This document shows, piece by piece, positions 7,046-35,646 of a stretch of 64,000 nucleotides of DNA. The stretch lies in assembly GCA_964490935.1 (NCBI GenBank), contig CAZBEO010000006.1, forward strand, positions 5,261 through 69,260, given 5' to 3'. Every line of letters begins with the position of its first letter. Position 1 is the stretch's first letter. A model generated the notes under the pieces. The model was not told where the DNA came from. It saw only the letters and a program-made list of their open reading frames with translations, and did not search any database. The stretch comes from an uncultured Verrucomicrobiota bacterium (GTDB taxonomy: Bacteria; Verrucomicrobiota; Kiritimatiellia; RZYC01). A program made the translations under genes and the position numbers.

Positions 7046-7468
7046 GTGACCATGGAAAAGAGAAAAATTTTTATGACCGCCAACGACCACAAGCGTCTGA
7101 CCGACTTGCTCTCAGTGGACGGTTCATTCAACCATCGCGATCGCAAGGACCTTCAATCCCTTCAAGCTGAGCTGCAAAGTGCCGAGGTCATGGAATCGAC
7201 CGCGATACCCAAAACGGTCGTCACCATGAATTCCAAGCTGCGCTTTATGGATATGGACGATCAATCCGAGACGGAAGTCCGGCTCGTATTTCCTTCGGAT
7301 GCCGATATGGCTGAGGGACTCCTCTCGGTTCTTTCCCCCATCGGCACCGCGCTGCTCGGCTACCATGAAGGCGACCTTATTGAATGGGCGGTGCCCGCAG
7401 GCACCCGTCGCATTCGAATTGAAAAAATCCTTTATCAGCCGGAAGCCGCTGGCGATTTAAACCTCTAA
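7046..7468 (+). CDS. rnk: Regulator of nucleoside diphosphate kinase Rnk (GreA/GreB-family C-terminal domain protein)
   Basis: VVTMNSKLRFMDMDDQSETEVRLVFP...LSPIGTALLGYHEGDLIEWAVPAG...YQPEAAGDLNL aligns closely with E. coli Rnk (VVTMNSRVKF...VGAALLGLRVGDSIHW...YQPEAAGDYLL). Confidence 0.85.
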   Translation: MTMEKRKIFMTANDHKRLTDLLSVDGSFNHRDRKDLQSLQAELQSAEVMESTAIPKTVVTMNSKLRFMDMDDQSETEVRLVFPSDADMAEGLLSVLSPIGTALLGYHEGDLIEWAVPAGTRRIRIEKILYQPEAAGDLNL

Positions 7469-7470
7469 TC

Positions 7471-7866
7471 ATGAAGTCCAGAAAACCGCTAGCCTCCCAA
7501 CTGCCCGGCACCACGGATTCGTGGGCGGAAATGCTGCTGGCGCACCCGATTCGTAATGTCGCGGCGAAGGTCACCGGCGGCGAGAATCCCGGCGAGCTTC
7601 GCATTGCCGTTCCGACCCGTCGGAGGCCTTGGTGGTATCACGTTCCTCCGCTGAACTGGATTATCCGCCCGCCCCCGTATCGAACCCTGATTCTGGACCC
7701 GGTCGGCGCTCCAATTTGGGAATTGTGCGACGGGAAAACGACGGTCGAGGACATCATCCGAAACTTCGCAAAAAGTCAAAGTTTGACGTTTCACGAGGCC
7801 AGGGTATCTGTTACAAGCTACCTTCGCTTGTTGATCGAGCGCGGGGCACTGGCCATCGCCCTGTAA
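7471..7866 (+). CDS. PqqD-family / RRE-like peptide-binding domain protein with a 60-aa N-terminal extension
   Basis: C-terminal 70 aa (RTLILDPVGAPIWELCDGKTTVEDIIRNFAKS...SYLRLLIERGALAI) matches the PqqD/RiPP-recognition-element pattern (IWELxDGxRTVxEI...L...GLI). The start is 2 nt after the rnk stop, suggesting translational coupling. Confidence 0.65.
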   Translation: MKSRKPLASQLPGTTDSWAEMLLAHPIRNVAAKVTGGENPGELRIAVPTRRRPWWYHVPPLNWIIRPPPYRTLILDPVGAPIWELCDGKTTVEDIIRNFAKSQSLTFHEARVSVTSYLRLLIERGALAIAL

Positions 7867-9981
7867 TTGGTGTTGTGGTATCGTTTTTTGAGTCTGGCAT
7901 TGCCGCCGGGCGGGAGGCGTTTTTTTGTGAGCTTGCGAGCAATTCTCATTGGTCTACTGGGTGTGGCATTTGTCTGTGGCTACACGCATTTCAACGATAA
8001 CGTCATGCGACAAACGATGTTTGTCGGCAACAGTATGCCTATTTCCGTGTACGGGCTGCTGGTGATCTTCCTCTTGTTTCTGTTTCCGCTGCTTCGTAAA
8101 ATCAATCGGAAACTGCTGCTCAGCCGCAAGGAAATCGTGGTGGTTCTGGCCATGGTGCTGGCGTCCTGCGCGATTCCCGGAAGCAATCTGCTACGCCTTT
8201 TCACGCCGGCGCTGATCATGCCGAACCGCTATCAGCATACCGAGCCCGGTTGGCAGAACCGCCATGTGATGGACCTCGTACCCGAGGGTATGTTGGTGGA
8301 TGTCACACCCGATGAGGAAACCATTTTGAACGGCTACTGCCGCGGACTGAGCACGGGCACCGACCGCATCGGCGTTGGAGAAGTTCCCTGGCGGGCATGG
8401 GTCAAACCGGTGTTCTATTGGATGCCCATTATCCTTTCGCTCTGGATCGCCCTGATCGGCCTTTCACTCGTGGTGCATCGACAATGGTCCAAGCATGAAC
8501 ACTTACCCTACCCGATTGTCACCTTTACCAAATCCCTGCTCCCTCAGGAAAACGGCGAGCCCAGCCCTGTCTTTAAAAACCGCCTTTTCTGGCTGGGTCT
8601 TATTTCCGTGGTCTGCCTGCATGGTTACAATTATCTGAACGTCTGGTTCCCGGAGTACATGCCGGGCAAAATTCCGCTTGGCGTAGACTACAGTTCCATC
8701 GGCGAGCTCTTCACCACCTTTGAAAAGGGCGGCGGGGCGGGGCTGCTTTCCTGGACAGGCACGATTTTCCTGACGGTGGTGGCCGTGGCCTACTTCCTGC
8801 CTTCGGATGTCTCGTTCTCCCTCGGTATCGGGCCGCTGGTGTGGGTGTATCTGGTGGGCGCCATGTCCACCTACGGGTTGGCCACCACGGGCTGGCAGTC
8901 GTCCTGGCCCTACGGCATCACACGCGACTCGATGGTGGACATCGGTGCCTACACGGGCCTGCTGCTCGTGCTGCTGTACACCGGGCGGCATTACTTTACC
9001 TCGGTTTTCAAATCGGCCGTCGGCCTGCCCTCGCGCGAAAAGCCGGAGAAAACCGCCGTGTGGGGTGCGCGGGTCTTCATGATTTCCATGGTCTTTTTCG
9101 TGGTGTATGCGGTGCTACTGGCGCGTATGGACTGGATGATCGCGCTGATGATGGGCCTGCTGATGGTGGCGTTTTATCTGGTGATGGGCCGCATGATTGC
9201 GGAAACGGGGCTCTTCTTCATAGTCATGGTGGGCACGCCGGCCACGATCGTCTGGGCGCTTTTTGGAAGCAAGGCGCTGGGCCCGCAAACCATGTTCATT
9301 ATGTTTATGCTCTGCCTCATCCTCTTCTATGATGCCCGCGAAGCACTCATGCCCTATATGGTCAATTCACTAAAACTGGTGGATGACTGCAAGGTCCACA
9401 TCGGAAAGGTCGCCGCCCTGGCGGTCGCCGCCGTGGTGCTCGGCCTGGCGGTGGGCATTCCGGCCACGCTGTATTTTCAGTATGACGAGGGCGTCGAGGT
9501 GGGCTCCTGGCGCGCAGAACAGGCCAAGACGCCCTTTAATGAGGTGATCGGCACAATGCAGCGCCTAGAGGCGCAGGGCCAACTCGAGGAAGCGGGCCTC
9601 AAGCATGGGCTGGCCCGTTTCACGGATATGTCGCCGCACAAATTGGGCCTATCCTTCTTCGGTGGGTCGCTGTTGCTGGTACTGGCACTCTCCGCACTGC
9701 GCCTTCGTTTTGTGAAGTGGCCGATTCATCCGGTCATGTTTCTGGTTTGGAACACCTATTCCGGCGAGCGGTTTTACCAATCATTTCTAGTGGGATGGTT
9801 CATCAAGGTCATGGTGACGAAATACGGCGGCGCCAGCATCTATCAGGCGGTGAAACCTCTGATGTTCGGCGTGATTGCCGGCGAGATGCTGGGTGGAGCG
9901 CTGCCCATGATTGTCAGCGTCATTTATTATGCGGCAACGGACGGTTCCATACCGAAATCCTTTGAGGTGATGCCCCGCTAA
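7867..9981 (+). CDS. Polytopic membrane protein (at least 12 predicted TM segments), paralog of 17285-19267; possibly distant OPT (oligopeptide transporter) superfamily
   Basis: Long hydrophobic segments throughout. Contains an LPYP motif (KHEHLPYPIVTF), comparable to the E-K-LPFP motif of its paralog and the [KE]L[PT][FY]P motif recalled from OPT/YSL transporters. The true start is uncertain: the TTG at 7867 abuts the pqqD-like stop, while a GTG at 7927 has a GGGAGG RBS. Confidence 0.55.
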   Translation: MVLWYRFLSLALPPGGRRFFVSLRAILIGLLGVAFVCGYTHFNDNVMRQTMFVGNSMPISVYGLLVIFLLFLFPLLRKINRKLLLSRKEIVVVLAMVLASCAIPGSNLLRLFTPALIMPNRYQHTEPGWQNRHVMDLVPEGMLVDVTPDEETILNGYCRGLSTGTDRIGVGEVPWRAWVKPVFYWMPIILSLWIALIGLSLVVHRQWSKHEHLPYPIVTFTKSLLPQENGEPSPVFKNRLFWLGLISVVCLHGYNYLNVWFPEYMPGKIPLGVDYSSIGELFTTFEKGGGAGLLSWTGTIFLTVVAVAYFLPSDVSFSLGIGPLVWVYLVGAMSTYGLATTGWQSSWPYGITRDSMVDIGAYTGLLLVLLYTGRHYFTSVFKSAVGLPSREKPEKTAVWGARVFMISMVFFVVYAVLLARMDWMIALMMGLLMVAFYLVMGRMIAETGLFFIVMVGTPATIVWALFGSKALGPQTMFIMFMLCLILFYDAREALMPYMVNSLKLVDDCKVHIGKVAALAVAAVVLGLAVGIPATLYFQYDEGVEVGSWRAEQAKTPFNEVIGTMQRLEAQGQLEEAGLKHGLARFTDMSPHKLGLSFFGGSLLLVLALSALRLRFVKWPIHPVMFLVWNTYSGERFYQSFLVGWFIKVMVTKYGGASIYQAVKPLMFGVIAGEMLGGALPMIVSVIYYAATDGSIPKSFEVMPR

Positions 9982-9994
9982 TCAAAAAAAACGG

Positions 9995-11524
9995 GTGCAC
10001 GGGGCCGAAGAACAGACAGGTGCAACAACGGGAACGGATGATGAGACGGCTATGAAAGAAATTGATGTACGCGAACAACCTCTGCTCAGCTTCGCCAAGA
10101 CGACGCGCATCGCCCTGGCCGGCGTGAAATACCGCCTCTTCCGCTCCATTGTGACGGTGGCGGTCATTGCTGTGGCCATGGCCTTTCTAATGAATATCCT
10201 CAGCGAAAGTCTGATCAAAAAGGCGGTATCCCTTTCCGCCCGCGAAGGCATCGAGGAAATCCGCCGAACCGATAAATGGGTCGCCAAACTCTCGGTGCCC
10301 CAATCCTACGCCGAACTGATTACCGTGCTTGCCGCTCCCGACGGCTTCTCCAAAGACCGCAACATGCTTGAGCTCGATGAACTTGACCCGGATCAGCAGG
10401 CACGCATCCAACGTCTCGCCGGACAGGCCGCCGTCTATCTCACCTTCTTCGACGAACTGAACTACGGGCGCCGGCGCGTACTCGTCGGCAGCGCCGCGTC
10501 CACCCGTATTCTTGATCTGTTGCAGGATGATGCCCGCCGCGAACGCCTGGCCGAAGCGTTGACCAATATGCGCTCCGTACGCTTTCCCGGCGATCCCGAA
10601 GCCTTTTCCGCCTTTCTCGGGGAGTGGCCCACCCTGCGGGACTATCTCGGCAACGTCCGTGAAAATCAGCGGGCCGCCATTCAATCCGTGCAGGACGCCC
10701 TCAATCAACGCACCATGCTCACCGCTATGCAGCAGGCTGACGGTCCCTTCGGCGAAAGGATTCGCAGCGTCGGGTTCGATCTTCCCGAGGAGGAAGCGGT
10801 CTCGCTCACGGCCCAAGCCATGGCCGTGGCCGACAACAATCTCATTGCGGAAACCATCAACCGCCCCGAACTGCGGCAGGCCGTGGCCGCCCGCTACGAC
10901 GTACTCCCCGGCGATGTCTCGCTCGACCAGATTTGGTCCATGCTCGCAAAGCCGGTCGGGGCCTCCTGGTATCTCGAGCGCATGCGCGAAGGGTCTCTTG
11001 ATCTTCCGGAGCGCCTCACCTCCGAACGCCTGACGGACCTTTCCAGCGCACGGGCCGAATCCAGACTCTACCTCAAGGCCGAACGCCTCACCACCGAAGC
11101 GGGCGGCGGCTTCATGGGTATCGGCGAGCGCATGACATGGCTGGCCTTCGTCTCCATGCTGGTCTGCGTGGTGGGCATTGCCAACGCCATGCTCATGAGC
11201 GTCACCGAACGGTTCCGTGAAATCGCCACGCTCAAATGTCTCGGCGCGCTGGATGGATTCATCATGACTGTTTTTCTGATTGAAGCGTCCGTACTCGGAC
11301 TGGTCGGCGGCGTGGTGGGTACTTTGCTGGGCCTTGCCCTGTGTTTGACCCGCATGTTTTCCATTTTCCATTCCCTAGTTTCTCGCTCGTTCCCGCTGAA
11401 CGAAATCGTTCTGGCGGCCGTGCTCTCCATTGCGGCGGGCGTGATTCTGGCCGCCGTGGCCGCCGTCTATCCCTCGTTCCGCGCGGCGCGCCTGGCACCC
11501 ATGGAGGCGATGCGCATTGAATAA
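9995..11524 (+). CDS. ABC transporter permease, MacB/FtsX family (single FtsX domain: N-terminal TM, about 280-aa periplasmic domain, 3 C-terminal TMs)
   Basis: N-terminal TM RSIVTVAVIAVAMAFLMNIL. C-terminal FtsX signature (LMSVTERFREIATLKCLGA...VLGLVGGVVGTLLGL...AAVYPSFRAARLAPMEAMR). The start may be GTG at 9995 or ATG at 10052. Confidence 0.75.
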   Translation: MHGAEEQTGATTGTDDETAMKEIDVREQPLLSFAKTTRIALAGVKYRLFRSIVTVAVIAVAMAFLMNILSESLIKKAVSLSAREGIEEIRRTDKWVAKLSVPQSYAELITVLAAPDGFSKDRNMLELDELDPDQQARIQRLAGQAAVYLTFFDELNYGRRRVLVGSAASTRILDLLQDDARRERLAEALTNMRSVRFPGDPEAFSAFLGEWPTLRDYLGNVRENQRAAIQSVQDALNQRTMLTAMQQADGPFGERIRSVGFDLPEEEAVSLTAQAMAVADNNLIAETINRPELRQAVAARYDVLPGDVSLDQIWSMLAKPVGASWYLERMREGSLDLPERLTSERLTDLSSARAESRLYLKAERLTTEAGGGFMGIGERMTWLAFVSMLVCVVGIANAMLMSVTERFREIATLKCLGALDGFIMTVFLIEASVLGLVGGVVGTLLGLALCLTRMFSIFHSLVSRSFPLNEIVLAAVLSIAAGVILAAVAAVYPSFRAARLAPMEAMRIE

Positions 11525-11565
11525 CCCCGGCGGGCAGGACCCCGCCTCAAACCGGACCACGCACT

Positions 11566-12339
11566 ATGAAGGACACAGCCACTAAACAGCCGAAAAAGCC
11601 CGAACAAGACCCCAGGAAACGGCGGGTCATCATCCGCACTATCGGCATGAAAAAGGAATACAACCGGGGCGGTGAAATCACCCAGGCCCTGCGCGGCGTG
11701 GACGTCGAACTCTATACCGGCGAATTCATCGTGGTCATGGGCCCCTCCGGCTCCGGGAAAAGCACCTTCTTCAATATGATCGGCGCGCTCGACAGCCCCT
11801 CACACGGGCGCGTATTCATCGACGAAGTGGACGTGGCCCAACTCACCGCCGAAGAACTCGCCTTTCTGCGCTGCCGAAAAATCGGCTACATCTTTCAATC
11901 CTACAATTTGATTCAATACATGACCGCCCTGGAAAATGTGACCACGCCCATGGCCTTCGGCGGTGTGGACCCCGATCAGGCGCGCAAGCGTGGCATGGAC
12001 CTCCTCGAACTGGTCGGCCTGGGAGACCGCTGGTTCCACCGCCCCATCGAAATGTCCGGCGGACAGCAACAGCGCGTCGCCATCGCCCGCTCCCTGGCCA
12101 ATCAACCTTCCGTTCTGCTGTGCGATGAACCCACTGCCAATCTCGACCATCACACCGGGGATGAAATTCTCGCCATCCTGCAGAAATTGAACACCGAGCG
12201 CGGCGTTACCATTATCTGCGCCACCCACGATCACCGGATGATGAACGTGTGCGACCGCCTGCTCTGGATACGCGACGGAGCCATCGAGCGCATTGCCCGT
12301 CGCGACGAAGTGGAAGTGGAACTTGGAAGCATTGATTAG
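11566..12339 (+). CDS. ABC transporter ATP-binding protein, MacB/LolD-type
   Basis: Walker [19 protein letters not shown], signature [15 protein letters not shown], Walker B LLCDEPTANLD, H-loop ATHD. Paralog of 19291-20016. Confidence 0.93.
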   Translation: MKDTATKQPKKPEQDPRKRRVIIRTIGMKKEYNRGGEITQALRGVDVELYTGEFIVVMGPSGSGKSTFFNMIGALDSPSHGRVFIDEVDVAQLTAEELAFLRCRKIGYIFQSYNLIQYMTALENVTTPMAFGGVDPDQARKRGMDLLELVGLGDRWFHRPIEMSGGQQQRVAIARSLANQPSVLLCDEPTANLDHHTGDEILAILQKLNTERGVTIICATHDHRMMNVCDRLLWIRDGAIERIARRDEVEVELGSID

Positions 12340-12353
12340 AAACTAAAAACAAT

Positions 12354-15300
12354 TTGAATGAAAACAGGACCCCATTGAAAAAACGGAGAGTCAACGTGTC
12401 AAAACGCTTAGGGATTACAGGATGGTTGGCGCTGAGCCTGCTTCTGCTTGCGCAGAGCGGTGCCCCGGCGGCAACGGAACAATTTCTCAACGATGTGCGG
12501 AGTCTCACCGCCGCACCGCACCGCCTCGGCGGTACCGAAGAATACGGACGCGCCGCCGACTACGTGCAGCAGCGCCTGACGGATCTCGGCTTGGATGAAG
12601 TCTTTGTCCAGGAATTTCCCTCGGCTCAGACGAAAGTGCTGCGCTGCGAGGCCGTCGCTCCCGGCGGACGCGTCATTCCGCTGGTTCCTGATCGTCCCAA
12701 CGGAATTATCCCGCCTGTCAGCGGGCCCGAAGGCATCACCGGCGAACTTGTTTACGTCGGAACCGGCACGCAGGAAGACTTCCAACGCGCCAATCCCTCC
12801 GGAAAAATAGCCGTCATGGACTATAACTCCGGCGATCAGTTTCTTCAGGTCTTCCGCCTCGGTGCCAAGGCCATTATCTTCGTACGCCAGGAGCCCGCAC
12901 TCGCCTGGAATCACCATTATGTCAACGCCAACGCCAATCTGCCCCGCTACTTCCACGATGGACGCGCCGAAGATCTGCCCCTGGGCGAAACCATCACCAT
13001 CCACAGCGAAATCGTCTGGGAGCGCGTCACCGGGCGCAACGTCATCGCCTACATCAAAGGCACCAACCCGGTCTTCAATTTTGACAAACCCGAGGTGCTC
13101 ATTCTAGCCGCCAATCTGGATACCTTCGGCGATGTGCCACGCCGCTCGCCGGGTGCACGCGGTGCCGCCAACTGCGCCGCCCTCCTCCAACTGGCCGAAC
13201 AATTCAAAAAGAACCCGCCCCGGCGCGACGTCCTCTTTCTCTTCACCGATATGAGCGCACGACTCCACGCCGGCGCCGCCGCCTTCTACTCCGCCCTCGA
13301 AGAAGACGATAAAAGATCCGACATCAACGCGCGCCTCGAATACTGGCAGCAGGAAACCGCCTTCCTGACCAACATGAACGTCCTGATTCAAAGCAGCGAC
13401 CCTCTCTCGCAATCCACCACCCCGCACGGACGCGACCTGGTCAAACGCCTACGCACCAAGGCCGCCGACTATGCCTACCTCGCCCGTGGCACCATCATGG
13501 AACTGCGCGAAGAACTCGACGCACTCAAGAATACCGAAGGAGATCACGCCGAACGCATCGCCCAACTCGAAGAGGAAATAGCCATCGGCGACGTAGATAA
13601 AGACCGCTGGAACGACCTCCGCCGCTACCTCGGAAAAGGGGAAACCGCCCCCGAGGTGAAAGACCTCTTCACCCAGGTACTTGATGCCGTCCACCGTGAC
13701 GCCGAAATACGAACGCGCGAACTCAAGGTGGATGAAAGCATGCTCAAGTCCGCCAAGCGCATCAAGAATCTCCTTGGCGATAAATGGATCAGCCTGCACA
13801 TGACCCTCCTCCTCGGCGATACCACTGACCGCTGGGGCGTCATCGTGGGGGGCAATTCTGAAATTCACTCCCCGCAGGATAACCCAGGCCTCTACGGAAA
13901 AATCAAAACCATCTTTCAGCAGGCCTGGCGCGACTTCGACGCCGCCGGGGAAACCCCGCGCCTGTTTGATACCTATTCCGTGGGTGAAACCCTCGCCGAA
14001 TCGCGACTCCTCTGGGCCGTGCCTATGCTCGTGCACAGCGGCGAAATCGCCGGACGTTTCGGCCTCTACAACATCGTCCTCGGCACCATCCAGGAACGCC
14101 TCGCTCGCGAAGGTACGCCCGATGATACCATGGAACTCATCAACATCGATGCCATCGAAAATGCCGCCGGTGAAATCGCCCTCATGCTCGGCGGAATCCG
14201 CGATGGCAAAAGAACGCCCAACGCCCTCGGCGTGGCCGATCAGGAAGCCCTCTCGATGCGGCGCTCCATCCGCACCGACAAACAGTTCATCACCTCCTAC
14301 TTCGCCAATGGACGCCCGCAGGGTGCGCTCTGCATGGGCCGTCAGCGCGGCAGCTCCATGCCCAACATGGCGGTGCCCGGCGCCACCGTGCAACTGTTCT
14401 CGCACCTGCCTTGGAACAACATCTTCTGGCCCTACAGCAAAGCCTATGGATTCGACCAGTTCTACGTGGTCATGAGCGACCAGAATGGAACCTACAGTTG
14501 CGGGCCGCTCCCCGAAGGCGACGGCAATGTCGTCGGGTTCTCCGCCGCCTTCGACGGAAAAGGCAACGTCAAGCTAGCCTCCGACAACGAATCCACCAAA
14601 CAAGCCCTCACGCGCCTGAACATGTTCAACGCCGCCGATGGTCTTTTCATGCTGCCGCCCGGCTTCTGGCAGGACCCTGCCCGGGTCATGAACGCACGCG
14701 CCAATGCCACCATCTCCGATGATACCGGCACCAAGGCCTATACCGAAACCACCGATGGCGTCATCCTCTTTTTCTGCGAAGACCGCATCCCCGGAATCAA
14801 GGCCTTCGAACTTGGAACCATCGCCGCACTCGCCTACACCCCCGACAAAAAAACAAAGGCCCGCGACGAGCAATACGGCGTCGGGTTCCCCCTCGATACC
14901 GACTGGACCACCATCCGCACCGCCAAACAATCCGTGTACGACATCTGGAACCTCAATGAATCGCGCCTCGCCATCATGCGTAGCCGCGACATCATGAACA
15001 GCTCACTTGAAGAACTTCACGGGCGTATTCAGGATACCCTCAATGAGGCCGAAAAGATCGATTCACCCGCACGGCAGGAAGCCATGTTTGCCGCCTCCTT
15101 CATGAGTGCACGCCCCGTCTACACTATGATCCGCGAAAGCATGGACGACCTCGTCACGGCCGTCCTTATTCTCCTCGCCCTTTGCGTACCTTTCGCCTTT
15201 GCCCTCGAACGCCTCCTGATCGGCGCTTCCATGATCTACAAACAGGTGATGTGGTTCACCATCTTCTTTATCCTCACCTTTGTGATTCTCTACCTCTCGC

Positions 15301-17213
15301 ACCCCGCCTTCGCCATCGCCCAAACGCCCATCATCATCTTCCTCGGCTTCGCCGTGGTGGTGCTTTCCACGCTCGTCATCGTCATCATCATGCGCAAATT
15401 CCAGCTCGAGCTGAAGGCGATTCAAGGCATGACGGCCTCCGTACACGCCTCCGACATTTCCCGCTTCAACACGGTCATGGCCGCCATGAGCATGGGCATA
15501 TCCACCATGCGCCGCCGCCCCCTGCGCACCGCTCTGACCGCCATCACCATCATCCTGCTCACCTTTACCATCCTCTGCTTCGCCTCGTTCGACACGCAGA
15601 AGGGTATTATCAAACTCTTTACCGCCCCCTCGCCCCCCTACACCGGCGTCCTGTTGCGCAACGCCACCTACGGCTCCTACAACCCCGATTACCTCGACAT
15701 CATCGACGCCCGATGGGGGGCCGACGCCATCGTCTGCCCGCGTTACTGGGTCTGCCCCGAGTTCAAAAACGACCCCGACTTTGTCGTCTCGCTTGAAGAC
15801 GGAAGCAATTCCGTTACCCTCCGGGGCATCCTCGGGCTTGATGCCAAAGAACTCGCCCAGCGCGAAGACCTGCGCGAACTGCTTCAGATTCAGAATCCGG
15901 ACGACATTGCCGACAAGGTCTTCATCACCGAAGCCGTCGCCGATTTGATCAAGGCCAAGCCCGGCGACCGCGTCATCATCCAGGGCCTGCGCCTAACCGT
16001 CGGCCCGCTCCTGCAATCCTCGAAATTTTCCATCGCCCGCGATATGGATGGTAGCAGCGTACTGCCCGTCGACTTCCTGGCCATGAAGGATGCTGGCGCG
16101 GATGTTAAACAGGCCTCGGGCGACGCCACCGACGATCAAGCCAAATGGAGCAGCTTGCCGGTGGACTCGATCGTCATCATGTCCAGCGCCAACGCCCTCC
16201 TCAACTACGGCAAATGCCATTGCATTCCAATTTATACCGAGGACTCCCAGCAGGCATCCGAAATCGCCGAGGACGCCGCACGCATGAGGGATAAAACCCC
16301 CATCATCGCCACCCGCAAGGATGGCGTCTACCGCCACATCCTCGGCACCGTCGTGGCTGCCTCTGGCGTGGGCGACCTGCTCTTCCCCGTACTGCTCGGT
16401 GGATTGGTCATCTTCGGCACCATGCTTGGTTCCGTGGCGGACCGCGAAAAAGAAATCTACACCTTCAGCGCGCTCGGTCTGGCCCCGCCGCATGTAGCGA
16501 GTCTCTTCTTTGCCGAAGCCATGGTCTATTCGGTGATCGGCGGGCTCGGCGGCTACCTCATCGCTCAGGGCTCCATGAAAATTCTCGGCTTCCTCGCCAC
16601 CTACGGCTGGGTCCAAGTGCCCGAAATGAACTACTCCTCCACCAACGCCATCGTCACCATTCTCATTGTCATGGCGACGGTCCTGGTGTCCGCCATTTAT
16701 CCTGCGGTCAAAGCCTCGAAGAGCGCCAATCCGGGCCTCCTACGCTCCTGGAAGCTGCCCCAACCCGAAGGCGATGTCATTGACCTGGTCTTCCCCTTCA
16801 CCGTCTCCGAATACGACCTAACCGGCGTGGTCAGCTTCCTGAAAGAACACTTCGAAGCCTTCAGCGATACCGGCTTGGGCTCTTTCATGGCACAAAAAAC
16901 AAAGCTCATCGTCCAGGAGAGCGGAAGCCTTGGTGTCGCGACCCGCCTGGCCATCGCGCCTTTTGACCTCGGCGTCACACAGGATATTTTCCTGAAGAGC
17001 GCCCCCAGCGAAATCCCGGGCATTGACGAGGTGAACATCCGGCTCACCCGCCGCTCCGGCCAGCCCAAGGACTGGGCCCGCCTTAATAAGGTACTCCTCA
17101 ATGACCTGCGCACCCAGTTCCTGCTCTGGCGCTCGCTCCCTGCCGAAACCATGGAAATTTACCGTCAAAGAACGTTGGCTCAAATACATGAAATGAAACA
17201 GGACCCGGCATAA
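12354..17213 (+). CDS. 1619-aa fusion: signal/TM anchor + M28-peptidase-like (apparently catalytically dead) periplasmic domain + two FtsX-type permease domains (about 8 TMs)
   Basis: M28-like block at about 13038-13300 (NVIAYIKGTNP...EVLILAANLDTFG...GARGAANCAALLQLAEQF...RRDVLFLFTDMSARLHAGAAAF) is collinear with M28 motifs, but the His/Asp-Asp/Glu-Glu ligands read N / R-G / S-A. FtsX-type TM bundles at about aa 925-1025 and 1330-1470 (PVLLGGLVIFGTMLGSVADREKEIYTFSALG...AIYPAVKASKSANPG). Confidence 0.75.
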   Translation: MNENRTPLKKRRVNVSKRLGITGWLALSLLLLAQSGAPAATEQFLNDVRSLTAAPHRLGGTEEYGRAADYVQQRLTDLGLDEVFVQEFPSAQTKVLRCEAVAPGGRVIPLVPDRPNGIIPPVSGPEGITGELVYVGTGTQEDFQRANPSGKIAVMDYNSGDQFLQVFRLGAKAIIFVRQEPALAWNHHYVNANANLPRYFHDGRAEDLPLGETITIHSEIVWERVTGRNVIAYIKGTNPVFNFDKPEVLILAANLDTFGDVPRRSPGARGAANCAALLQLAEQFKKNPPRRDVLFLFTDMSARLHAGAAAFYSALEEDDKRSDINARLEYWQQETAFLTNMNVLIQSSDPLSQSTTPHGRDLVKRLRTKAADYAYLARGTIMELREELDALKNTEGDHAERIAQLEEEIAIGDVDKDRWNDLRRYLGKGETAPEVKDLFTQVLDAVHRDAEIRTRELKVDESMLKSAKRIKNLLGDKWISLHMTLLLGDTTDRWGVIVGGNSEIHSPQDNPGLYGKIKTIFQQAWRDFDAAGETPRLFDTYSVGETLAESRLLWAVPMLVHSGEIAGRFGLYNIVLGTIQERLAREGTPDDTMELINIDAIENAAGEIALMLGGIRDGKRTPNALGVADQEALSMRRSIRTDKQFITSYFANGRPQGALCMGRQRGSSMPNMAVPGATVQLFSHLPWNNIFWPYSKAYGFDQFYVVMSDQNGTYSCGPLPEGDGNVVGFSAAFDGKGNVKLASDNESTKQALTRLNMFNAADGLFMLPPGFWQDPARVMNARANATISDDTGTKAYTETTDGVILFFCEDRIPGIKAFELGTIAALAYTPDKKTKARDEQYGVGFPLDTDWTTIRTAKQSVYDIWNLNESRLAIMRSRDIMNSSLEELHGRIQDTLNEAEKIDSPARQEAMFAASFMSARPVYTMIRESMDDLVTAVLILLALCVPFAFALERLLIGASMIYKQVMWFTIFFILTFVILYLSHPAFAIAQTPIIIFLGFAVVVLSTLVIVIIMRKFQLELKAIQGMTASVHASDISRFNTVMAAMSMGISTMRRRPLRTALTAITIILLTFTILCFASFDTQKGIIKLFTAPSPPYTGVLLRNATYGSYNPDYLDIIDARWGADAIVCPRYWVCPEFKNDPDFVVSLEDGSNSVTLRGILGLDAKELAQREDLRELLQIQNPDDIADKVFITEAVADLIKAKPGDRVIIQGLRLTVGPLLQSSKFSIARDMDGSSVLPVDFLAMKDAGADVKQASGDATDDQAKWSSLPVDSIVIMSSANALLNYGKCHCIPIYTEDSQQASEIAEDAARMRDKTPIIATRKDGVYRHILGTVVAASGVGDLLFPVLLGGLVIFGTMLGSVADREKEIYTFSALGLAPPHVASLFFAEAMVYSVIGGLGGYLIAQGSMKILGFLATYGWVQVPEMNYSSTNAIVTILIVMATVLVSAIYPAVKASKSANPGLLRSWKLPQPEGDVIDLVFPFTVSEYDLTGVVSFLKEHFEAFSDTGLGSFMAQKTKLIVQESGSLGVATRLAIAPFDLGVTQDIFLKSAPSEIPGIDEVNIRLTRRSGQPKDWARLNKVLLNDLRTQFLLWRSLPAETMEIYRQRTLAQIHEMKQDPA

Positions 17214-17284
17214 CCGGATGCACCGCCCCTGCTCTGCGGCTGCGCGCCGCCTGATCGGACGATGCAAACGAATGGATTAAGGCT

Positions 17285-19267
17285 ATGACAGAACGTATCG
17301 ACAAAGAACTGGAAGAATTCCGGCAAGTCATGGAGGTGCCCACCACCTTCGAAGATGGCTTTAACTGGACGTCCCTCATCGGCGCCATTTTTATTGCCCT
17401 GCTGATGGTGCCTGGCGCCATTTACATGGGCCTGCTCGCGGGCGTGGGAAACATCGGCTCCGCCTCGCAATGGGTCACCGTGATTCTCTTTATCGAAGTG
17501 GCCAAGCGCGCACACAAAAACCTAAAAAAAGCCGAAATCTTCGTCCTGTTCTTTATGGCGGGCGCCGCCATGGGTCTGCCCTTTTCGGGCCTGATCTGGA
17601 ATCAATTCTTCGCCCGGTCCGATGCCGCCATTGCCAACGGCATCGCTGAGAAACTCCCGGTCTGGTTCGCGCCGCTGGCCTCCTCGGACTCCTACACCCT
17701 GCGCAGCTTTATTCACCCCGACTGGCTGCCCGTGATCGGACTGATCGTCTTCGGAACCTTCTTCGGACAGCTCGCCAACATGGTCCTCGGCTACGGGCTT
17801 TTCCGCATCTCCAGCGACATTGAAAAACTCCCCTTCCCGATGGCGCCCGTCGGCGCGCAGGGTATCATGGCACTCGCGGAAGATGCCGACGAAAAGAACA
17901 TCGAACAACAGGAAAACCGATGGCGATGGCGTGTCTTTTCCATTGGCGGCGCCATAGGTCTAGCCTTCGGGGCCGTTTATCTCCTCTTGCCCACCCTGAC
18001 CGGCGCGCTCACCGGTGCGCCCATTCAGGTGCTGCCCATTCCCTTCTCCGACTTCACCGCCACCACCGGCAAATATCTGCCCGCCGTGGCCACCGGCATG
18101 TGCTGGGACCTAGGCAACCTGATCTTCGGCATGGTCCTTCCCTTCTTTGCCATGGTCGGCTCCTTTGTCGGGCTCATCGTGACCTTTGTGGCCAACCCCA
18201 TCCTCTATCACTACAACATCATTCACAACTGGACCATCGGCGACAACACCGTCACCACCCTCTACAAAAACAACATCGACTTCTACTTCAGCTTCCAGAT
18301 CGGCATTGCCGTGGCCATTGCCGTGGCCGGATTCTGGCAGGTCTTCCGCAGCTTCCAGAAGCGCAAACGGAATGCCGACAAAAAGCACAAGGAAATGGCT
18401 CACACCTACCCCGAAGGACGCGGCGACATCAGCGCATGGACCGTCATTCTCCTCTACTTCATCATCACCGTGATCTACATCCTGGTCTCCGGCTGGCTCG
18501 TGGATTGGCACCGCGGCATCATGATCGTCCTGCTGATTCTGGGGTTTGTCTATACGCCCTTCATCAGCTACGTCACCGCACGCCTCGAAGGTATGGTTGG
18601 GCAGGTCGTGGAAATCCCCTACATCCGCGAAGCGGCCCTCATCCTCAGCGGCTACTCCGGCGTGAAATGCTGGTTCCTGCCCATTCCCATCGCCAACTAC
18701 GGGTCTATGACCGTCTTCTACAAACAATGCGAACTCACCGGCACCAAATTCACCAGTATCTGGAAAACGCAGGTGGTTCTCTTTCCCATCATCCTGATCA
18801 GCTCCATCTTCTTCATGAACTTCATCTGGGGCCTCAATGAAGTCCCCTCCGCCGTCTATCCCTATGCCGACAAAATGTGGGAACTCCAGGCGGAAAATGC
18901 CTGTATCATGTTCTCGGCCACCCTCGGCGAATACTCCATCTTCGAGCAGGCCTTCAACTGGACCAACCTGACCACCGGTCTCATCTTCGGCGTCTTTCTC
19001 TTCGGGGGCATGAATGTGGTCGGTGCGCCCATCATGCTCACCTACGGCGTGGTGCGCGGCCTCGGCCAGACCGAACCCCACTGGGTACTCCCCCAGTTCA
19101 TCGGCGCACTCATCGGACGCTACTACTTTCAAAAAAGAATGGGGCTTAAATGGCGACAATACATCCCCGTCGTCAGCGCCGGATTCGCCTGCGGCATGGG
19201 ACTGATCACCACCGTCGGCGTCGGCATCACGTTCCTGAGCAAAGCGGCCATACCCCTGCCCTTTTAA
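17285..19267 (+). CDS. Polytopic membrane protein (660 aa), paralog of 7867-9981; possibly distant OPT (oligopeptide transporter) superfamily
   Basis: N-terminal GLLAGVGNIGSASQWVTVILF resembles the OPT first-TM/loop pattern (GLKAGxTVSASIPAAVI). EKLPFPMAPVGAQGIMA resembles the OPT [KE]LPFPEGTA motif. The C-terminal portions are collinear with 7867-9981. Confidence 0.55.
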   Translation: MTERIDKELEEFRQVMEVPTTFEDGFNWTSLIGAIFIALLMVPGAIYMGLLAGVGNIGSASQWVTVILFIEVAKRAHKNLKKAEIFVLFFMAGAAMGLPFSGLIWNQFFARSDAAIANGIAEKLPVWFAPLASSDSYTLRSFIHPDWLPVIGLIVFGTFFGQLANMVLGYGLFRISSDIEKLPFPMAPVGAQGIMALAEDADEKNIEQQENRWRWRVFSIGGAIGLAFGAVYLLLPTLTGALTGAPIQVLPIPFSDFTATTGKYLPAVATGMCWDLGNLIFGMVLPFFAMVGSFVGLIVTFVANPILYHYNIIHNWTIGDNTVTTLYKNNIDFYFSFQIGIAVAIAVAGFWQVFRSFQKRKRNADKKHKEMAHTYPEGRGDISAWTVILLYFIITVIYILVSGWLVDWHRGIMIVLLILGFVYTPFISYVTARLEGMVGQVVEIPYIREAALILSGYSGVKCWFLPIPIANYGSMTVFYKQCELTGTKFTSIWKTQVVLFPIILISSIFFMNFIWGLNEVPSAVYPYADKMWELQAENACIMFSATLGEYSIFEQAFNWTNLTTGLIFGVFLFGGMNVVGAPIMLTYGVVRGLGQTEPHWVLPQFIGALIGRYYFQKRMGLKWRQYIPVVSAGFACGMGLITTVGVGITFLSKAAIPLPF

Positions 19268-19290: not shown

Positions 19291-20016
19291 ATGACTAAAG
19301 AAGTGCTGATTGAAGTTCGCGGACTCAACAAGGTGTTTGACCTTGGCAAGATCAAGGTCCACGCCCTCAAAGAAATGGAAATGGATATTTTCCGCGGCGA
19401 ATACCTGTCCATCATGGGTCCTTCCGGCTCCGGCAAAAGCACCTTCTTCAACATGGTCGGTGCGCTCGATCGCCCTTCCTCCGGCACCGTCACCGTCGCC
19501 GGGGTCAGCCTCAACAAACTCAGCAGCCGCGAACTCGCCTACTTCCGAGGCAAACACATCGGCTACGTCTTTCAGCAGTTCAACCTGCTCCCCGCCTACA
19601 ACGCCATCGAAAACGTCTCCATGCCCCTCCTCTTCTGCGGATGGAAGGACCACGACGCCCACGAACGCGCCGTACAAGTGCTCGAACGTGTCGGCCTCGG
19701 GCACCGACTCACCCATCGGCCCGATGAACTCTCCGGCGGACAGCAGCAGCGCGTCGCCATTGCCCGCGCCCTCGCCAACGAACCCGCCATTATCCTGGCC
19801 GACGAACCCACCGGCAACCTCGACCTGCACACCGGCGAAGAAATCATCGCCCTGCTCAGCCAACTCAGCCGCGAAATGGGCGTCACCGTCATCTCCGCCA
19901 CACACGATCACAAAATGCTCGCCACCTCCGACCGTATCCTCTGGATCAAAGACGGACAAAAAGACCGCCTCGAGCGCCGCGAAGACATCAACATCAAGAT
20001 CGGCACCGTGAAATAG
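19291..20016 (+). CDS. ABC transporter ATP-binding protein, MacB/LolD-type (second copy)
   Basis: [16 protein letters not shown]...[18 protein letters not shown]...[15 protein letters not shown]...[11 protein letters not shown]. The ATG at 19291 has a GGAAGGAAAG RBS; the ORF-track start 19150 would overlap the upstream gene. Confidence 0.93.
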
Positions 20017-32337: not shown

Positions 32338-35300
32338 ATGAGCGTTTTGAAAGCATTGAGCAATTTGACGGTTAAGAGCAAGCTGATCGGGCTGGCCTTG
32401 TTTTCGATGTTGCTGATCGCCGGTATCGTGGCGGTCGGCATGGTCAACTATCTGAAAATTTCCTCCGCGCTCCTGGTCAAAGATCAGATTTATGTCATTT
32501 CAGAGGAGTTGCTTGATGCACGGGTTGCGGAGAAATCGTACCTGCAGTTTCACGACAAGGAGTATGCAGATAGCTTGGTGAGCATTGCGGCGCGGGCCCG
32601 GGAGAGCGCAGAAAAGCTGACACAGGAGAAACTTGGAGCGGCCCAGCAGAAGCTTGTCGGTGATATTTCCGAGCGGACACAGAATTACAGCGACAAGTTC
32701 AATGAGTTGGTCGAAGTCTATGCGGAGCGGGTTACGTGCAGAGAAACCATGAACGCGGCGTCTGTCCAGGCAGATGAAGTTCTTTCCAAGGTCTTGAGAA
32801 CCATCGGCGATCTGGAATACGAATTGATGCTGGACGGCGATTCGCTTACGGCGCAGCAGAGCGCCATATTGGGTTCGGCTGGCGATTGCAGAGTCTATCT
32901 CGCGGTGGCCAACAGCATGCAAAAAGCGTCCGTCATAAGCGGAGACTTGGCCGATTATGCCGCCTATACCAACTATATAGGGGGTTCCGCCGCTCTATCA
33001 CTGAGCGCCCTGGAGGTTGCTGCCAATAGCCTGGGTACGGTGCGCGACGTCAGCATGAAGGATATTGCAAAAGCCTTTCTGGATTCCGTGGCGGAGTATA
33101 AAACAGCATCTGGCAGGGCTCAGGATTTGTTTGTTCAAGAGCGGGCGATGACTCGGGAATTGGACGCCATCGGCACCGCCACCCAGGAGCAGGCAGGTCA
33201 ATTGATTGCCGGGGCCGCTGAATCGGTCGCGGCGACACAGCGTGCGGTCATTCGGATGATCACCTTGTTTCTTGTTGTGGGTATATTCCTCTTCGTGGTG
33301 GTGGTCGTGATCATCATCGTTTCCATTACGCGCCCGATTTCATTGATCACCAACGTGGCCACCGTTTTTCAAACAGGCGATTTTTCCGCTGAGATTTCGT
33401 ATCGTTCCAAAAATGAAATAGGTCAATTGGCGGATGCCTTCCGAAGCATGGCTCTTGCTCAGTCTAAAAAAATAGATGCGGCGGCAGCGATTTCAGACGG
33501 CGATTTGTCGGTCCAGATCGAATTGATGTCCGATCGTGACGCCTTGGGGAAATCCCTACAATCCATGGTTCGGGTGCTTCAGGATGTGATTCGGCAAAAT
33601 GAAGTGACCTGTCAGGCCCAGCAGGCGGGGGACCTTGACGCCCGTAACTGCCTGGATGGCTTGAGGGGCGACTACCAGACGCTGGCGGGTGGAGTAAACG
33701 CAGCGCTCGATAGTATCGCGCTGCCGATCGTTGAAGGGATCGGGATGCTCAATGAATATGCCCAGGGCGATGTGAGCCGCGAGATGCGCGAGCTGCCCGG
33801 AAAACAGATGATGCTTACGGACGGTTTGCGGAATATCCGCAGTAATCTTCAGAACATGATCGAAGATGCCCGGAGCCTTGCCCAGGCGGGGGCGGAAGGG
33901 CGCTTGAGTTTCCGGGCGGATACCACCAGGCTGCACGGGGATTTCCGCACCATTATCCAGGGGATCAACGATACGCTGGACCATGTGCTGGTTCCCATGC
34001 AGGAGGGGATGGAGGTCATCTCCCGCCTTTCTCAGTCCGAATTTGTGCGGATGGAAAAGGAGTATCCGGGCGATTACGCCGTGATACGCCGCAACGTGAA
34101 TCACGTATCCGATCCGTTGGCCACCATGACCGGGGAATTTGAAGGACTGGCGGCCGCAGTCAAAGAAGGCGATTTGGCGTTTCGCGCCAACGCCGAGGCC
34201 TTTGATGGTGCCTATCGTCGTATCGTGGATGTGGTCAACGCCTCTCTGGAGGCTGTGGCCACACCGATTCGGGAGGCTGGCGAAGTGCTTGGTGCCGCCG
34301 CAGAGCAGGACCTTACCGTGCGTGTCAGGGGCCGGTACAACGGGCAACTGGCGGAGTTTAAGGATAACGTCAATACGACCATCGAGAGGCTGAACGATGC
34401 GCTGGGGCAGGTGGCGCTCACCGTGAGTCAGGTGAACTCGGGCGCGGAGCAGATCAGCGACGCGAGTCAGTCGCTCTCACAGGGGGCGACGGAACAGGCG
34501 TCATCGCTGCAGGAGATTACCAGTTCCATGGCGGAAATCGCTTCCCAGGCCAAGACGAACGCCGAGAATGCGAACCAGGCCAACAGCTTGGCCGATGCGG
34601 TGCGCAAGTCGGCGGAGAAGGGGTCGGCACAGATGACGCAGATGACGGGCGCGATGGATTCCATTAATGCATCCAGCGCGCAGATCGCCAAGATCATCAA
34701 GGTGATTGATGATATTGCATTCCAGACCAACCTGCTGGCGTTAAATGCGGCGGTCGAGGCGGCGCGTGCCGGTCGTCACGGCAAGGGTTTTGCCGTGGTG
34801 GCGGATGAAGTGCGCAATCTGGCGGGTCGCAGCGCGAAGGCGGCGAAGGAAACGGCGGAGCTGATCGAATCTTCCGGCGCAAAGGCCAATGCCGGCATGC
34901 AGGTGGCGAATGCCACGGCGGAGTCCTTCAAAGATATCGTGGACGGGATCGTAAAGACGAATGATCTGGTGGGCGAGATTGCGGCAGCGTCGAGTGAGCA
35001 GGCGCAGGGCGTATCGCAAATCAACATCGGGTTGAGCCAGGTGGATCAAGTCACGCAGCAGAATACGGCCAACGCCGAGGAAACGGCATCGGCGGCGCAG
35101 GAATTGAGCAGTCAATCCGTGCGCCTGCACACACTGGTTGCGAAATTCCGGCTGAGTGGGGCAGCGGAAGAGGGTGAGGCGAAGTCCAGTGGCCGAGCGC
35201 TTCCGGCGGCATCGGAGTCTTCGTGGGGCCATGGGGACGAGGCGTCGAACGACAAGAGCATAATGAAGTGGTCGGAGGAGTTTTCCGTGGGGAACGGAAA

Positions 35301-35646
35301 GATGGATGCGCAGCATAAACGCCTGTTTGGGTTGATCAATAAGGTATACGGGGCGTTGCAAAGCGGCAAAGGCAATGAACAGGCGTTGGCGATTCTGGAG
35401 GAACTGGCGGATTACACACAGACGCACTTTTCGGAAGAAGAAGCTCTGATGCGTCTGTATAACTATCCAGGCCTCGATGAGCAGGTGGAGACGCACCGCG
35501 CTTTTGTTCAGAAGGTGGTTGATTTACAGGAGAGCGCACGGAAGGGACAGCCTTTGGGTGCCCGGGTCTTTATTTTCCTGAAAGATTGGCTGACGACGCA
35601 TATTTGCAAACTGGACAAACAATACAGCGATTATCTGCCGGAGTGA
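32338..35646 (+). CDS. Methyl-accepting chemotaxis protein with periplasmic helical sensor, poly-HAMP array and C-terminal bacteriohemerythrin domain (DcrH-like)
   Basis: Two TMs flank a 280-aa periplasmic domain. Multiple HAMP-like repeats. MA signalling domain ([50 protein letters not shown]). The last 115 aa (35290-35646) carry hemerythrin ligand spacing H-x3-E / H-x3-H / H-x4-D ([31 protein letters not shown]). Confidence 0.92.

Follow-up and report, generated by a model that had tools for sequence, protein, structure and literature searches.

A degenerate M28-peptidase-like ectodomain fused to an FtsX-type permease unit and encoded in a conserved gene cassette

Here, we describe a protein of 1,619 amino acids (aa) that is encoded in a 64,000-nucleotide stretch of DNA (referred to as the window) from an uncultured Verrucomicrobiota bacterium of the Kiritimatiellia lineage (assembly GCA_964490935.1, contig CAZBEO010000006.1, positions 5,261 to 69,260). 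Its ectodomain has the predicted fold of an M28 aminopeptidase but retains neither the catalytic Glu nor any of the five zinc ligands, while the residues that took over the former active site are almost invariant among its relatives. This ectodomain is joined to a membrane part with a single FtsX unit, and the gene stands beside genes for a second FtsX permease, two ATP-binding cassette (ABC) ATPases and an OPT-like permease. On balance, we favour the reading that a multi-component ABC machine of type VII (MacB/LolCDE/FtsEX class) has this protein as its receptor subunit on the periplasmic side, and that the dead M28 head would bind or gate a substrate without cleaving it. The segments of the protein, with their positions in the window, are as follows; TM stands for transmembrane, PA for protease-associated and AF2 for AlphaFold2.

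12354..17213, + strand: whole open reading frame (ORF), 1,619 aa, TTG start; a single uninterrupted reading frame
12354..12473, + strand: Sec-type signal peptide, aa 1-40, with a basic n-region, an h-region of ~12 residues and an APAA c-region
12474..12656, + strand: N-terminal segment of the M28 fold, aa 41-101, placed by phmmer, AF2 model and family profile
12666..12983, + strand: PA domain interrupting the M28 fold, aa ~105-210; alignment with the PA inserts of 2ek8 and BSAP
12990..13319, + strand: first half of the M28 core (aa 213-322); degenerate motifs AANLD, PGARGAAN and FTDMSARLHAG
13323..13775, + strand: four-helix insertion, aa 324-474, between the 'EE' and 'D179' strands, from AF2 model and conservation
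13779..14228, + strand: second half of the M28 core, aa 476-625, with SLHMT (H482), VHSGE (H561) and EGTPDDT (G587)
14271..14843, + strand: beta-sandwich, aa ~640-830, from the AF2 model; no family match
14859..15149, + strand: helical stalk, aa 836-932, from the AF2 model
15150..15410, + strand: three-helix TM bundle, aa 933-1019, very strongly conserved, joined by very short loops and lacking a coupling helix
15411..15533, + strand: cytoplasmic linker, aa 1020-1060, conserved and containing an amphipathic helix; from model and conservation
15534..16733, + strand: single type VII ABC (MacB/LolE-type) unit, from Pfam FtsX, Foldseek and profile matches
16734..17210, + strand: cytoplasmic alpha/beta C-terminal domain, aa 1461-1619, conserved; no family

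Fold and former metal site of the ectodomain

The original prediction, made by reading the DNA alone, had recognized a block of degenerate M28 motifs in this frame. The quoted blocks were placed at aa 229-239, 247-259, 267-284 and 290-311 (nt 13038-13286) of a real ORF, and the region is M28-like well beyond chance, as Pfam, phmmer, a family profile and the AF2 model searched with Foldseek all agree. With aa 41-400 alone as the query, Pfam Peptidase_M28 (PF04389) was matched at E=4.6e-8 (33.4 bits versus a gathering score of 21.3), covering only positions 1-122 of the 193 in the profile. A Pfam scan of the full-length protein reported only FtsX (aa 1346-1456) and missed Peptidase_M28, the second half of the M28 core received no Pfam score either alone or spliced, and a precomputed PF04389 match is present in only about half of the homologues. 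The visibility of the M28 match on the N-terminal fragment only may explain why such proteins are mostly annotated as mere FtsX permeases.

Among PDB sequences, phmmer found the PA-domain M28 aminopeptidase 2ek8 (E=6e-9, aa 42-322), and the family profile retrieved 2ek8 (2e-12), BSAP (9e-8), human nicastrin (1.6e-6) and PaAP (1.4e-5). The AF2 model of aa 1-1020, for which 72 homologues were used, reached a pLDDT of 90.3 and a pTM of 0.87, and Foldseek matched it to 2ek8 (1.7e-17) and BSAP (3.7e-16), followed by PaAP, GCPII and transferrin receptor 1 (TfR1; E~1e-14), with 600-690 aligned columns for the bacterial aminopeptidases and TfR1 and ~385 for GCPII. The PA domain is well conserved (0.63), and the homologues P0003 and P0032 carry a precomputed PF02225 (PA domain) match. 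The four-helix insertion is the least conserved part (0.43) and is 130-260 aa longer in some homologues, where the extra segments appeared helical or of low complexity by eye and were uninformative. Thus, the predicted fold of the ectodomain is that of a PA-domain M28 peptidase split by a large insertion.

To name the positions of the active site we used the Vibrio aminopeptidase, whose sequence was verified to be identical to 1AMP chain A; in 1AMP numbering the ligands are H97, D117, E152, D179 and H256, and the general base is E151. Three alignments to 1AMP were compared, by hhalign, hmmsearch and hmmalign, the latter two with the family profile from which the helical insertion had been spliced out, and they agree on the first five positions. 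H97 corresponds to N254 in the motif AANLD, in which D99 is kept as D256; D117 corresponds to G270 in PGARGAAN, adjoined by the invariant R269; E151 and E152 correspond to S301 and A302 in FTDMSARLHAG; and D179 corresponds to H482, with SLHMT standing against QLDMT in hmmsearch and hmmalign. The fifth ligand was mapped only by motif, spacing and the order of secondary structure, because this part gave no significant alignment, and a global hhalign of the second half against an AAP-subfamily profile yielded a low-confidence alignment only. The favoured counterpart of H256 is G587, where the motif EGTPDDT(L/M) stands against IHTTQDTL; counted from H561 (which corresponds to H230 in the SDH motif), both proteins reach this position after 26 ungapped residues, and the order of short helix, strand, loop and C-terminal helix in the model also fits this mapping. 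An alternative alignment puts H256 at G577, so that both candidates are Gly, and aa 562-640 contain no His at all.

The same positions were surveyed across the family. A database search found 132 relatives, 120 of which are listed, and the column counts refer to 121 family sequences. None of the 121 has the complete canonical ligand set; the commonest six-position signature is N-G-Q-A-H-G, and the general-base position is Q in 94, E in 16 and S in 3 sequences, with Ser in the query. The prediction had read the His, Asp-Asp and Glu-Glu positions as Asn, Arg-Gly and Ser-Ala, and this was borne out by the 1AMP alignment (N254, G270, S301, A302). Its broader statement that all metal ligands are substituted also holds for the two ligands that had not been inspected, D179 (now H482) and H256 (now Gly, by motif and spacing), the survey of orthologs pointed the same way, and, with all six catalytic or ligand positions non-canonical in the query, the term pseudo-peptidase is apt. 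The loss of the five zinc ligands together with the catalytic Glu, as they are mapped here, therefore shows that the M28 head cannot act as a co-catalytic zinc peptidase.

The remodelled site is almost invariant. Among the 121 sequences, D256 is kept in 120, R269 in 120, A271 in 118, N273 in 119, D299 in 118, H482 in 120, E586 in 117 and G587 in 120; R303 (101/121) and H305 (106/121) are also strongly kept, and the mean conservation of the M28 domain is 0.60-0.66. This pattern of near-invariance shows, at the level of sequence, that the dead M28 domain is a maintained module and not a decaying relic. The family also resembles nicastrin at these motifs. In the profile alignment, PGARGAAN..FFDxQARGHAG pairs with PGAESAVAS..FFQGETFDYIGS, so that Q301 of the family corresponds to E333 and H305 to Y337 of the DYIGS motif, and once the insertion was spliced out nicastrin became the best PDB sequence match, ahead of active peptidases. 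The profile matches to PDB nicastrin, though significant, are partial. The Pfam Nicastrin model (PF05450) gave the family consensus 19.1 bits, below its threshold of 25, and no presenilin, APH-1 or PEN-2 family was found among the cassette genes scanned with Pfam.

Membrane part and protein family

The original prediction had also described the permease as a double-FtsX protein of the MacB type and had implied that the M28 module takes the place of the usual Porter or Sabre domain. The fusion to a MacB-type (type VII ABC) permease was upheld, with one canonical unit and LolD-like ATPases adjacent; the other two points were not. Pfam FtsX (PF02687) was matched with 37.7 bits versus 25.5 at aa 1346-1456, and this is the sole detectable FtsX domain. 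The unit comprises TM1 (aa 1061-1079), a periplasmic domain that we call ECD2 (aa 1080-1328) and the FtsX helices TM2-4 (aa 1329-1460), with the coupling-helix motif DREKEIYTFSALG. A predicted model of aa 1020-1619 (pLDDT 82) was matched by Foldseek over 470-490 columns to LolE (7e-14) and MacB (1.3e-13), and further to 5xu1, HrtB, YtrF, YbbP, BceB and FtsX, the E-values for LolE, MacB, 5xu1 and HrtB lying between 7e-14 and 1e-10; the family profile matched 5xu1, LolF, MacB and YtrF. The model thus contains a four-TM unit with a predicted Porter-containing periplasmic domain between TM1 and TM2, in which the Porter subdomain is not separately resolved. The FtsX unit already possesses a LolE/MacB-like periplasmic domain, and the M28 module therefore replaces neither Porter nor Sabre, nor is it placed between TM1 and TM2 of an FtsX unit.

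The hydrophobic segments nearer the N-terminus do not form a second FtsX unit. The N-terminal stretch has a column conservation of 0.10-0.23 versus 0.75-0.91 for every other TM helix, and the homologues show a basic n-region, an uncharged core of 9-17 aa and an AxA-like end at this place, from which we infer a Sec signal peptide and not a conserved TM1. The bundle of three TM helices is unlike FtsX as well: hhalign of aa 900-1025 versus aa 1300-1465 gave E=0.17 over 11 columns, that is, no similarity. In the model, the last stalk helix (905-955) is continuous with the first TM helix of this bundle. The predicted architecture is therefore a signal-peptide-led ectodomain, a beta-sandwich, a stalk, a separate three-TM bundle and then the single FtsX unit. 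For the beta-sandwich plus stalk, NCBIfam gave no match, and the C-terminal domain found none in Pfam, NCBIfam or the PDB sequences; we observed that this last domain, highly conserved and of ~160 aa, has the order beta-alpha-beta4-alpha2 and weak fold matches only (SRPBCC-like, KA1).

The protein belongs to a sizeable family. The 120 listed relatives are 1,386-1,986 aa long, stem from independent assemblies, and are mostly full-length with 42-82% identity, and an exhaustive HMMER search with aa 41-329 returned 147 cluster representatives at E<=1e-30, of which the complete ones are nearly all 1,500-1,900 aa long. A scan of species-representative genomes yielded 213 loci, and the family occurs in at least 213 species-level genomes, mostly from poorly studied lineages of the Planctomycetes-Verrucomicrobia-Chlamydiae (PVC) group. 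The loci span Kiritimatiellia and other Verrucomicrobiota, Lentisphaeria/Victivallales, Opitutales, Phycisphaerae, Brocadiia, Sumerlaeia and one Fibrobacterota, and the cassette itself is present in Kiritimatiellia, Lentisphaeria, Planctomycetota and Opitutales. One isolate, Oligosphaera ethanolica DSM 24202, is among the loci, and as this strain is cultured, the family is experimentally accessible. Given the many full-length homologues, we regard the protein, from its sequence relatives, as the member of a real family and not as an assembly artefact. In the source databases the relatives are named 'FtsX-like permease family protein', 'M28 family peptidase' or 'hypothetical'. The protein as a whole, the beta-sandwich plus stalk and the C-terminal domain lack a model in Pfam as well as in NCBIfam. 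Literature searches found no paper on DUF6785 (a domain of a cassette protein, see below) or on FtsX together with M28 or Peptidase_M28, and nothing on topic for pseudopeptidase with M28.

The start codon is uncertain within window positions 12354-12374: the longest ORF begins with TTG at 12354, and a 100%-identical database twin (P0001) starts seven codons later and is seven residues shorter.

The gene cassette and its surroundings

The neighbouring genes recur with the gene for the 1,619-aa protein. Cassette counts were made in the 46 loci with enough flanking DNA, and in all 46 FtsX509, ATPase 1, the 1,619-aa protein, the OPT-like gene and ATPase 2 stand together on one strand, while the PqqD-like gene is present in 39 and the DUF6785 gene in 32; separate look-ups of relatives' loci agree with this pattern. 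In addition to the gene described above, the cassette contains the following features.

7471..7866, + strand: PqqD-like protein (relative of RRE-type peptide chaperones), 131 aa; 39/46 loci
7867..9981, + strand: DUF6785+DUF6784 polytopic membrane protein, 704 aa, identified by Pfam; 32/46 loci
9995..11524, + strand: single-unit FtsX-family permease FtsX509, 509 aa; 46/46 loci
10205-11120, + strand: periplasmic domain of FtsX509, ~300 aa; no family match in NCBIfam
11566..12339, + strand: LolD/MacB-type ABC ATPase 1, 257 aa, identified by the LolD profile; intact motifs
17285..19267, + strand: OPT-superfamily permease-like protein, 660 aa, identified by Pfam OPT; 46/46 loci
19291..20016, + strand: LolD/MacB-type ABC ATPase 2, ~241 aa, 50% identical to ATPase 1
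L038:6253-7122, L003:4250-5143 and L004:4626-5555 (related loci): examples of a ~290-310-aa accessory protein; no family match in NCBIfam

Both ATPases have intact Walker A and B motifs, signature and H-loop. Against the LolD profile they score 215 (ATPase 1) and 245 bits (ATPase 2), and because these values are below the equivalog cut-off of 307.75 the ATPases are not LolD itself. FtsX509 and the 1,619-aa protein have only TM2-4 in common, and no homology links ECD2 with the periplasmic domain of FtsX509. The OPT-like protein scores 37.1 bits versus 25.8 with Pfam OPT, covering profile positions 104-616 of 623.

A BLASTP comparison of the DUF6785 protein with the OPT-like protein gave no match, and PDB sequence searches with both proteins gave none either. 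We observed a weak collinear similarity between them (hhalign E=0.019 over 190 columns) and a common E(H/K)LP(Y/F)P motif, and DUF6785 may, on this sequence basis, be a distant member of the OPT superfamily, in which case the cassette would appear to hold an OPT-like/FtsX/ABC gene module in duplicate. The PqqD-like protein has an N-terminal extension of ~60 aa and weak matches to ScmD, lasso-peptide PqqD and PqqD. Between the DUF6785 and PqqD-like genes, many related loci encode the accessory protein of ~290-310 aa, which has no TM helix and is absent from the window. A GreA/Rnk-like gene (window 7046-7468, + strand) ends 3 bases before the PqqD-like gene; it was found in 0 of 85 related loci and therefore probably lies outside the cassette. 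In one genome two cassette copies stand in tandem (L060:1-6100 and 7159-17757), the first consisting of the end of one big gene, an OPT-like gene and ABC genes, the second being complete.

Outside the cassette the flanks are unrelated housekeeping genes, and among 131 flanking ORFs of other genomes there was no recurrent neighbour, so that the context beyond the cassette offers no functional clue. A mobile or defence island was considered and rejected, the flanks being purA, purB, proA and proB, and a tripartite efflux pump was rejected as the cassette contains no gene for a membrane-fusion protein or TolC. As judged from gene content and order, the cassette is a self-contained, vertically maintained unit with no sign of a mobile island.

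Two further genes of the window are recorded for completeness. A 2,842-aa ORF (45391-53919, - strand) has an N-terminal match to an alpha-amylase catalytic domain and a faint GH57 match only, most of its length being without assignment, and a 1,102-aa methyl-accepting chemotaxis protein (32338-35646, + strand) has several HAMP domains and a C-terminal hemerythrin domain.

Mode of action and known systems

In the mode of action that we propose, the FtsX unit would pair with FtsX509, as LolC does with LolE, or with itself, together with the ATPases, and ATP binding and hydrolysis would shift the periplasmic domains by mechanotransmission. The dead M28 head, tied rigidly through the stalk helix to the three-TM bundle, would be a non-catalytic receptor or gate that binds or gates its substrate without cleavage, as nicastrin in gamma-secretase and the transferrin receptor do. 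The transferrin receptor is an M28 fold reused as a non-catalytic receptor. The substrate would most likely be a peptide or a protein terminus, passed to or taken from the OPT-like permease. A ligand- or peptide-binding role of the head is plausible, given the nearly invariant remodelled site, the OPT-like and PqqD-like neighbours and the precedents of the transferrin receptor and of nicastrin, which in gamma-secretase has been termed the substrate receptor (PMC8515736). A peptide or protein terminus as cargo would follow from guilt by association with the OPT-like and PqqD-like partners. Type VII ABC systems that drive periplasmic hydrolases or dead hydrolase domains are known, namely FtsEX with EnvC (PMC7668044) and YbbAP with TesA (PMC12646458).

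Several observations weigh against this proposal. The peptide as substrate is inferred only from the neighbouring OPT-like and PqqD-like genes, and no conserved gene for a precursor peptide or modifying enzyme was found in or near the cassette. R269, D256, D299, E586 and H482 could, judging by their sequence conservation, merely form a salt-bridge network that replaces the metal, with no binding role. Furthermore, in a pairwise Smith-Waterman alignment of the second half with 1AMP, on which the fifth ligand would depend, 24 of 500 shuffles reached the observed score, which is not significant.

A purely steric function is the alternative that survives best, and we consider it possible if rather unlikely. 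The dead M28 head would then be a gate or scaffold only, that is, a lid, spacer or assembly platform without a pocket ligand, in which Arg, Asp, Glu and His fill the zinc void. This would fit the sequence similarity to nicastrin, the invariant R269 beside the lost bridging Asp together with conserved acidic residues, and the rigid stalk helix that continues into the TM bundle. However, about a dozen residues of the site are 88-99% conserved across phyla, well above the average of the fold and beyond the usual need of packing alone, and the PA domain, likewise well kept (0.63), is frequently a substrate-recognition module.

We give little credence to the view that the head is a regulator or docking site for a separate periplasmic enzyme, with the periplasmic domain of FtsX509 gripping the helical insertion and ATP driving a state switch of the dead peptidase. 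The type VII systems with dead or live hydrolase partners are precedents for it (PMC7668044, PMC12646458), and the long four-helix insertion in the ectodomain, a periplasmic domain of FtsX509 that is unrelated to ECD2 or to any known family, and the strict co-conservation of both FtsX proteins would suit such an arrangement. Yet no candidate periplasmic enzyme is conserved in or beside the cassette, and the insertion is the least conserved part (0.43) and variable in length, which is unexpected for a key interface.

That the domain is still a hydrolase, relying on H482, H305, H561, D256, D299 and E586 for a migrated or mononuclear metal site or for a metal-free one, appears highly improbable. 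With 88-99% conservation, these candidate ligands are found at or beside former ligand positions, and Glu occupies the general-base position in 16 of the 121 members, but Gly, Ala and Gly stand almost throughout at the positions of Asp117, Glu152 and His256, Gln takes the place of the general base in 94 of 121 members (Ser in the query), and the His97 position varies among N, P, H and R. Mononuclear M28-fold glutaminyl cyclases keep the Asp117, Glu152 and His256 positions, and the M28-fold proteins known to have such losses, nicastrin and TfR1, are inactive. Finally, the view that a peptidase gene and a permease gene were joined by mis-assembly or a wrong gene call, for which we found no supporting point, has a negligible chance of being correct and was rejected in view of 120 listed homologues, full-length at 1,386-1,986 aa and drawn from independent assemblies, 213 loci in species-representative genomes including the isolate O. 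ethanolica DSM 24202, and an uninterrupted frame.

Receptor function of the dead M28 head in a type VII ABC machine thus remains our preferred reading. A bolder version, which we put forward as a speculation with rather low expectations, is an undescribed envelope machine, mainly of PVC bacteria, in which two FtsX permeases and two ATPases operate a nicastrin-like dead-peptidase receptor, periplasmic peptides or protein termini are coupled to OPT permeases, and a PqqD-type chaperone waits at the cytoplasmic end. If true, the machine would combine a primary ABC motor with channels of the secondary-transporter type and, in functional terms, would be a bacterial counterpart to gating by nicastrin. 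The type VII ABC systems (Lol, FtsEX, MacB, Bce and YbbAP) each do a distinct envelope job, and the system described here would be a further class of them with an unprecedented architecture, combining a fused dead M28 domain, three extra TM helices, one FtsX unit, a novel cytoplasmic domain and obligate OPT-type partners. It would also show in a bacterium how an M28 fold was put to use as the non-catalytic receptor of a membrane machine, the same evolutionary move as in nicastrin and the transferrin receptor. It belongs to known kinds, the type VII ABC systems and the M28 non-peptidase homologues, and is not a new category.

Among known proteins, the best matches of the ectodomain in sequence and fold are the PA-domain M28 aminopeptidases of Aneurinibacillus AM-1 (2ek8), Bacillus subtilis (BSAP/YwaD, 6hc6) and Pseudomonas aeruginosa (PaAP, 8acr), with which it has in common the M28 alpha/beta core, a PA domain at the identical insertion point, N-terminal helices and a conserved Asp that follows the first ligand (D99, here D256). 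In contrast to them, its five zinc ligands and catalytic Glu are replaced and its core is split by the four-helix insertion of 150 aa, and whereas they are secreted, the protein is membrane-integrated, with the beta-sandwich, the stalk and seven TM helices following. Nicastrin (5a63, 8kco) is likewise an M28-fold ectodomain without metal ligands that is tethered to a polytopic membrane complex as substrate receptor or gate, and the profile similarity runs across the degenerate motifs including the DYIGS region; however, nicastrin is a eukaryotic protein with one TM helix, whose partner is an intramembrane protease, not an ABC system, and the resemblance is a parallel, not orthology. TfR1 and GCPII (M28B) also combine PA, M28 and helical domains in an ectodomain on a membrane anchor, and TfR1 is a ligand-less binding receptor, but their helical domain is C-terminal and dimerising where here it is an internal insertion, GCPII is active, and neither is linked to a transporter.

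On the transporter side, LolCDE, MacB, FtsEX, HrtBA and YtrEF resemble the system in the four-TM FtsX unit, the LolE/MacB-like periplasmic domain, the coupling helix and the LolD-like ATPases encoded nearby, and, like the Lol, FtsEX and Hrt classes, it lacks genes for a membrane-fusion protein and TolC. Unlike these type VII ABC transporters, the protein adds an N-terminal ectodomain of ~900 aa, three TM helices and a C-terminal cytoplasmic domain, and its cassette encodes two distinct FtsX proteins, two distinct ATPases and permeases of the OPT type. The duplicated FtsX permeases (YbbP, BceB and the ADOP family TIGR03434) are large single polypeptides with FtsX domains as well, to which there were weak Foldseek and NCBIfam matches (32 bits for ADOP versus a cut-off of 622 bits), but they carry two recognisable FtsX units and this protein carries one. 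FtsEX-EnvC and YbbAP-TesA embody the concept proposed here, in which ATP-driven mechanotransmission acts through a periplasmic (pseudo)hydrolase domain (PMC7668044, PMC12646458); there the partner is a separate protein, an M23 LytM factor or an SGNH esterase, whereas here the M28-fold domain is covalently fused to the permease.

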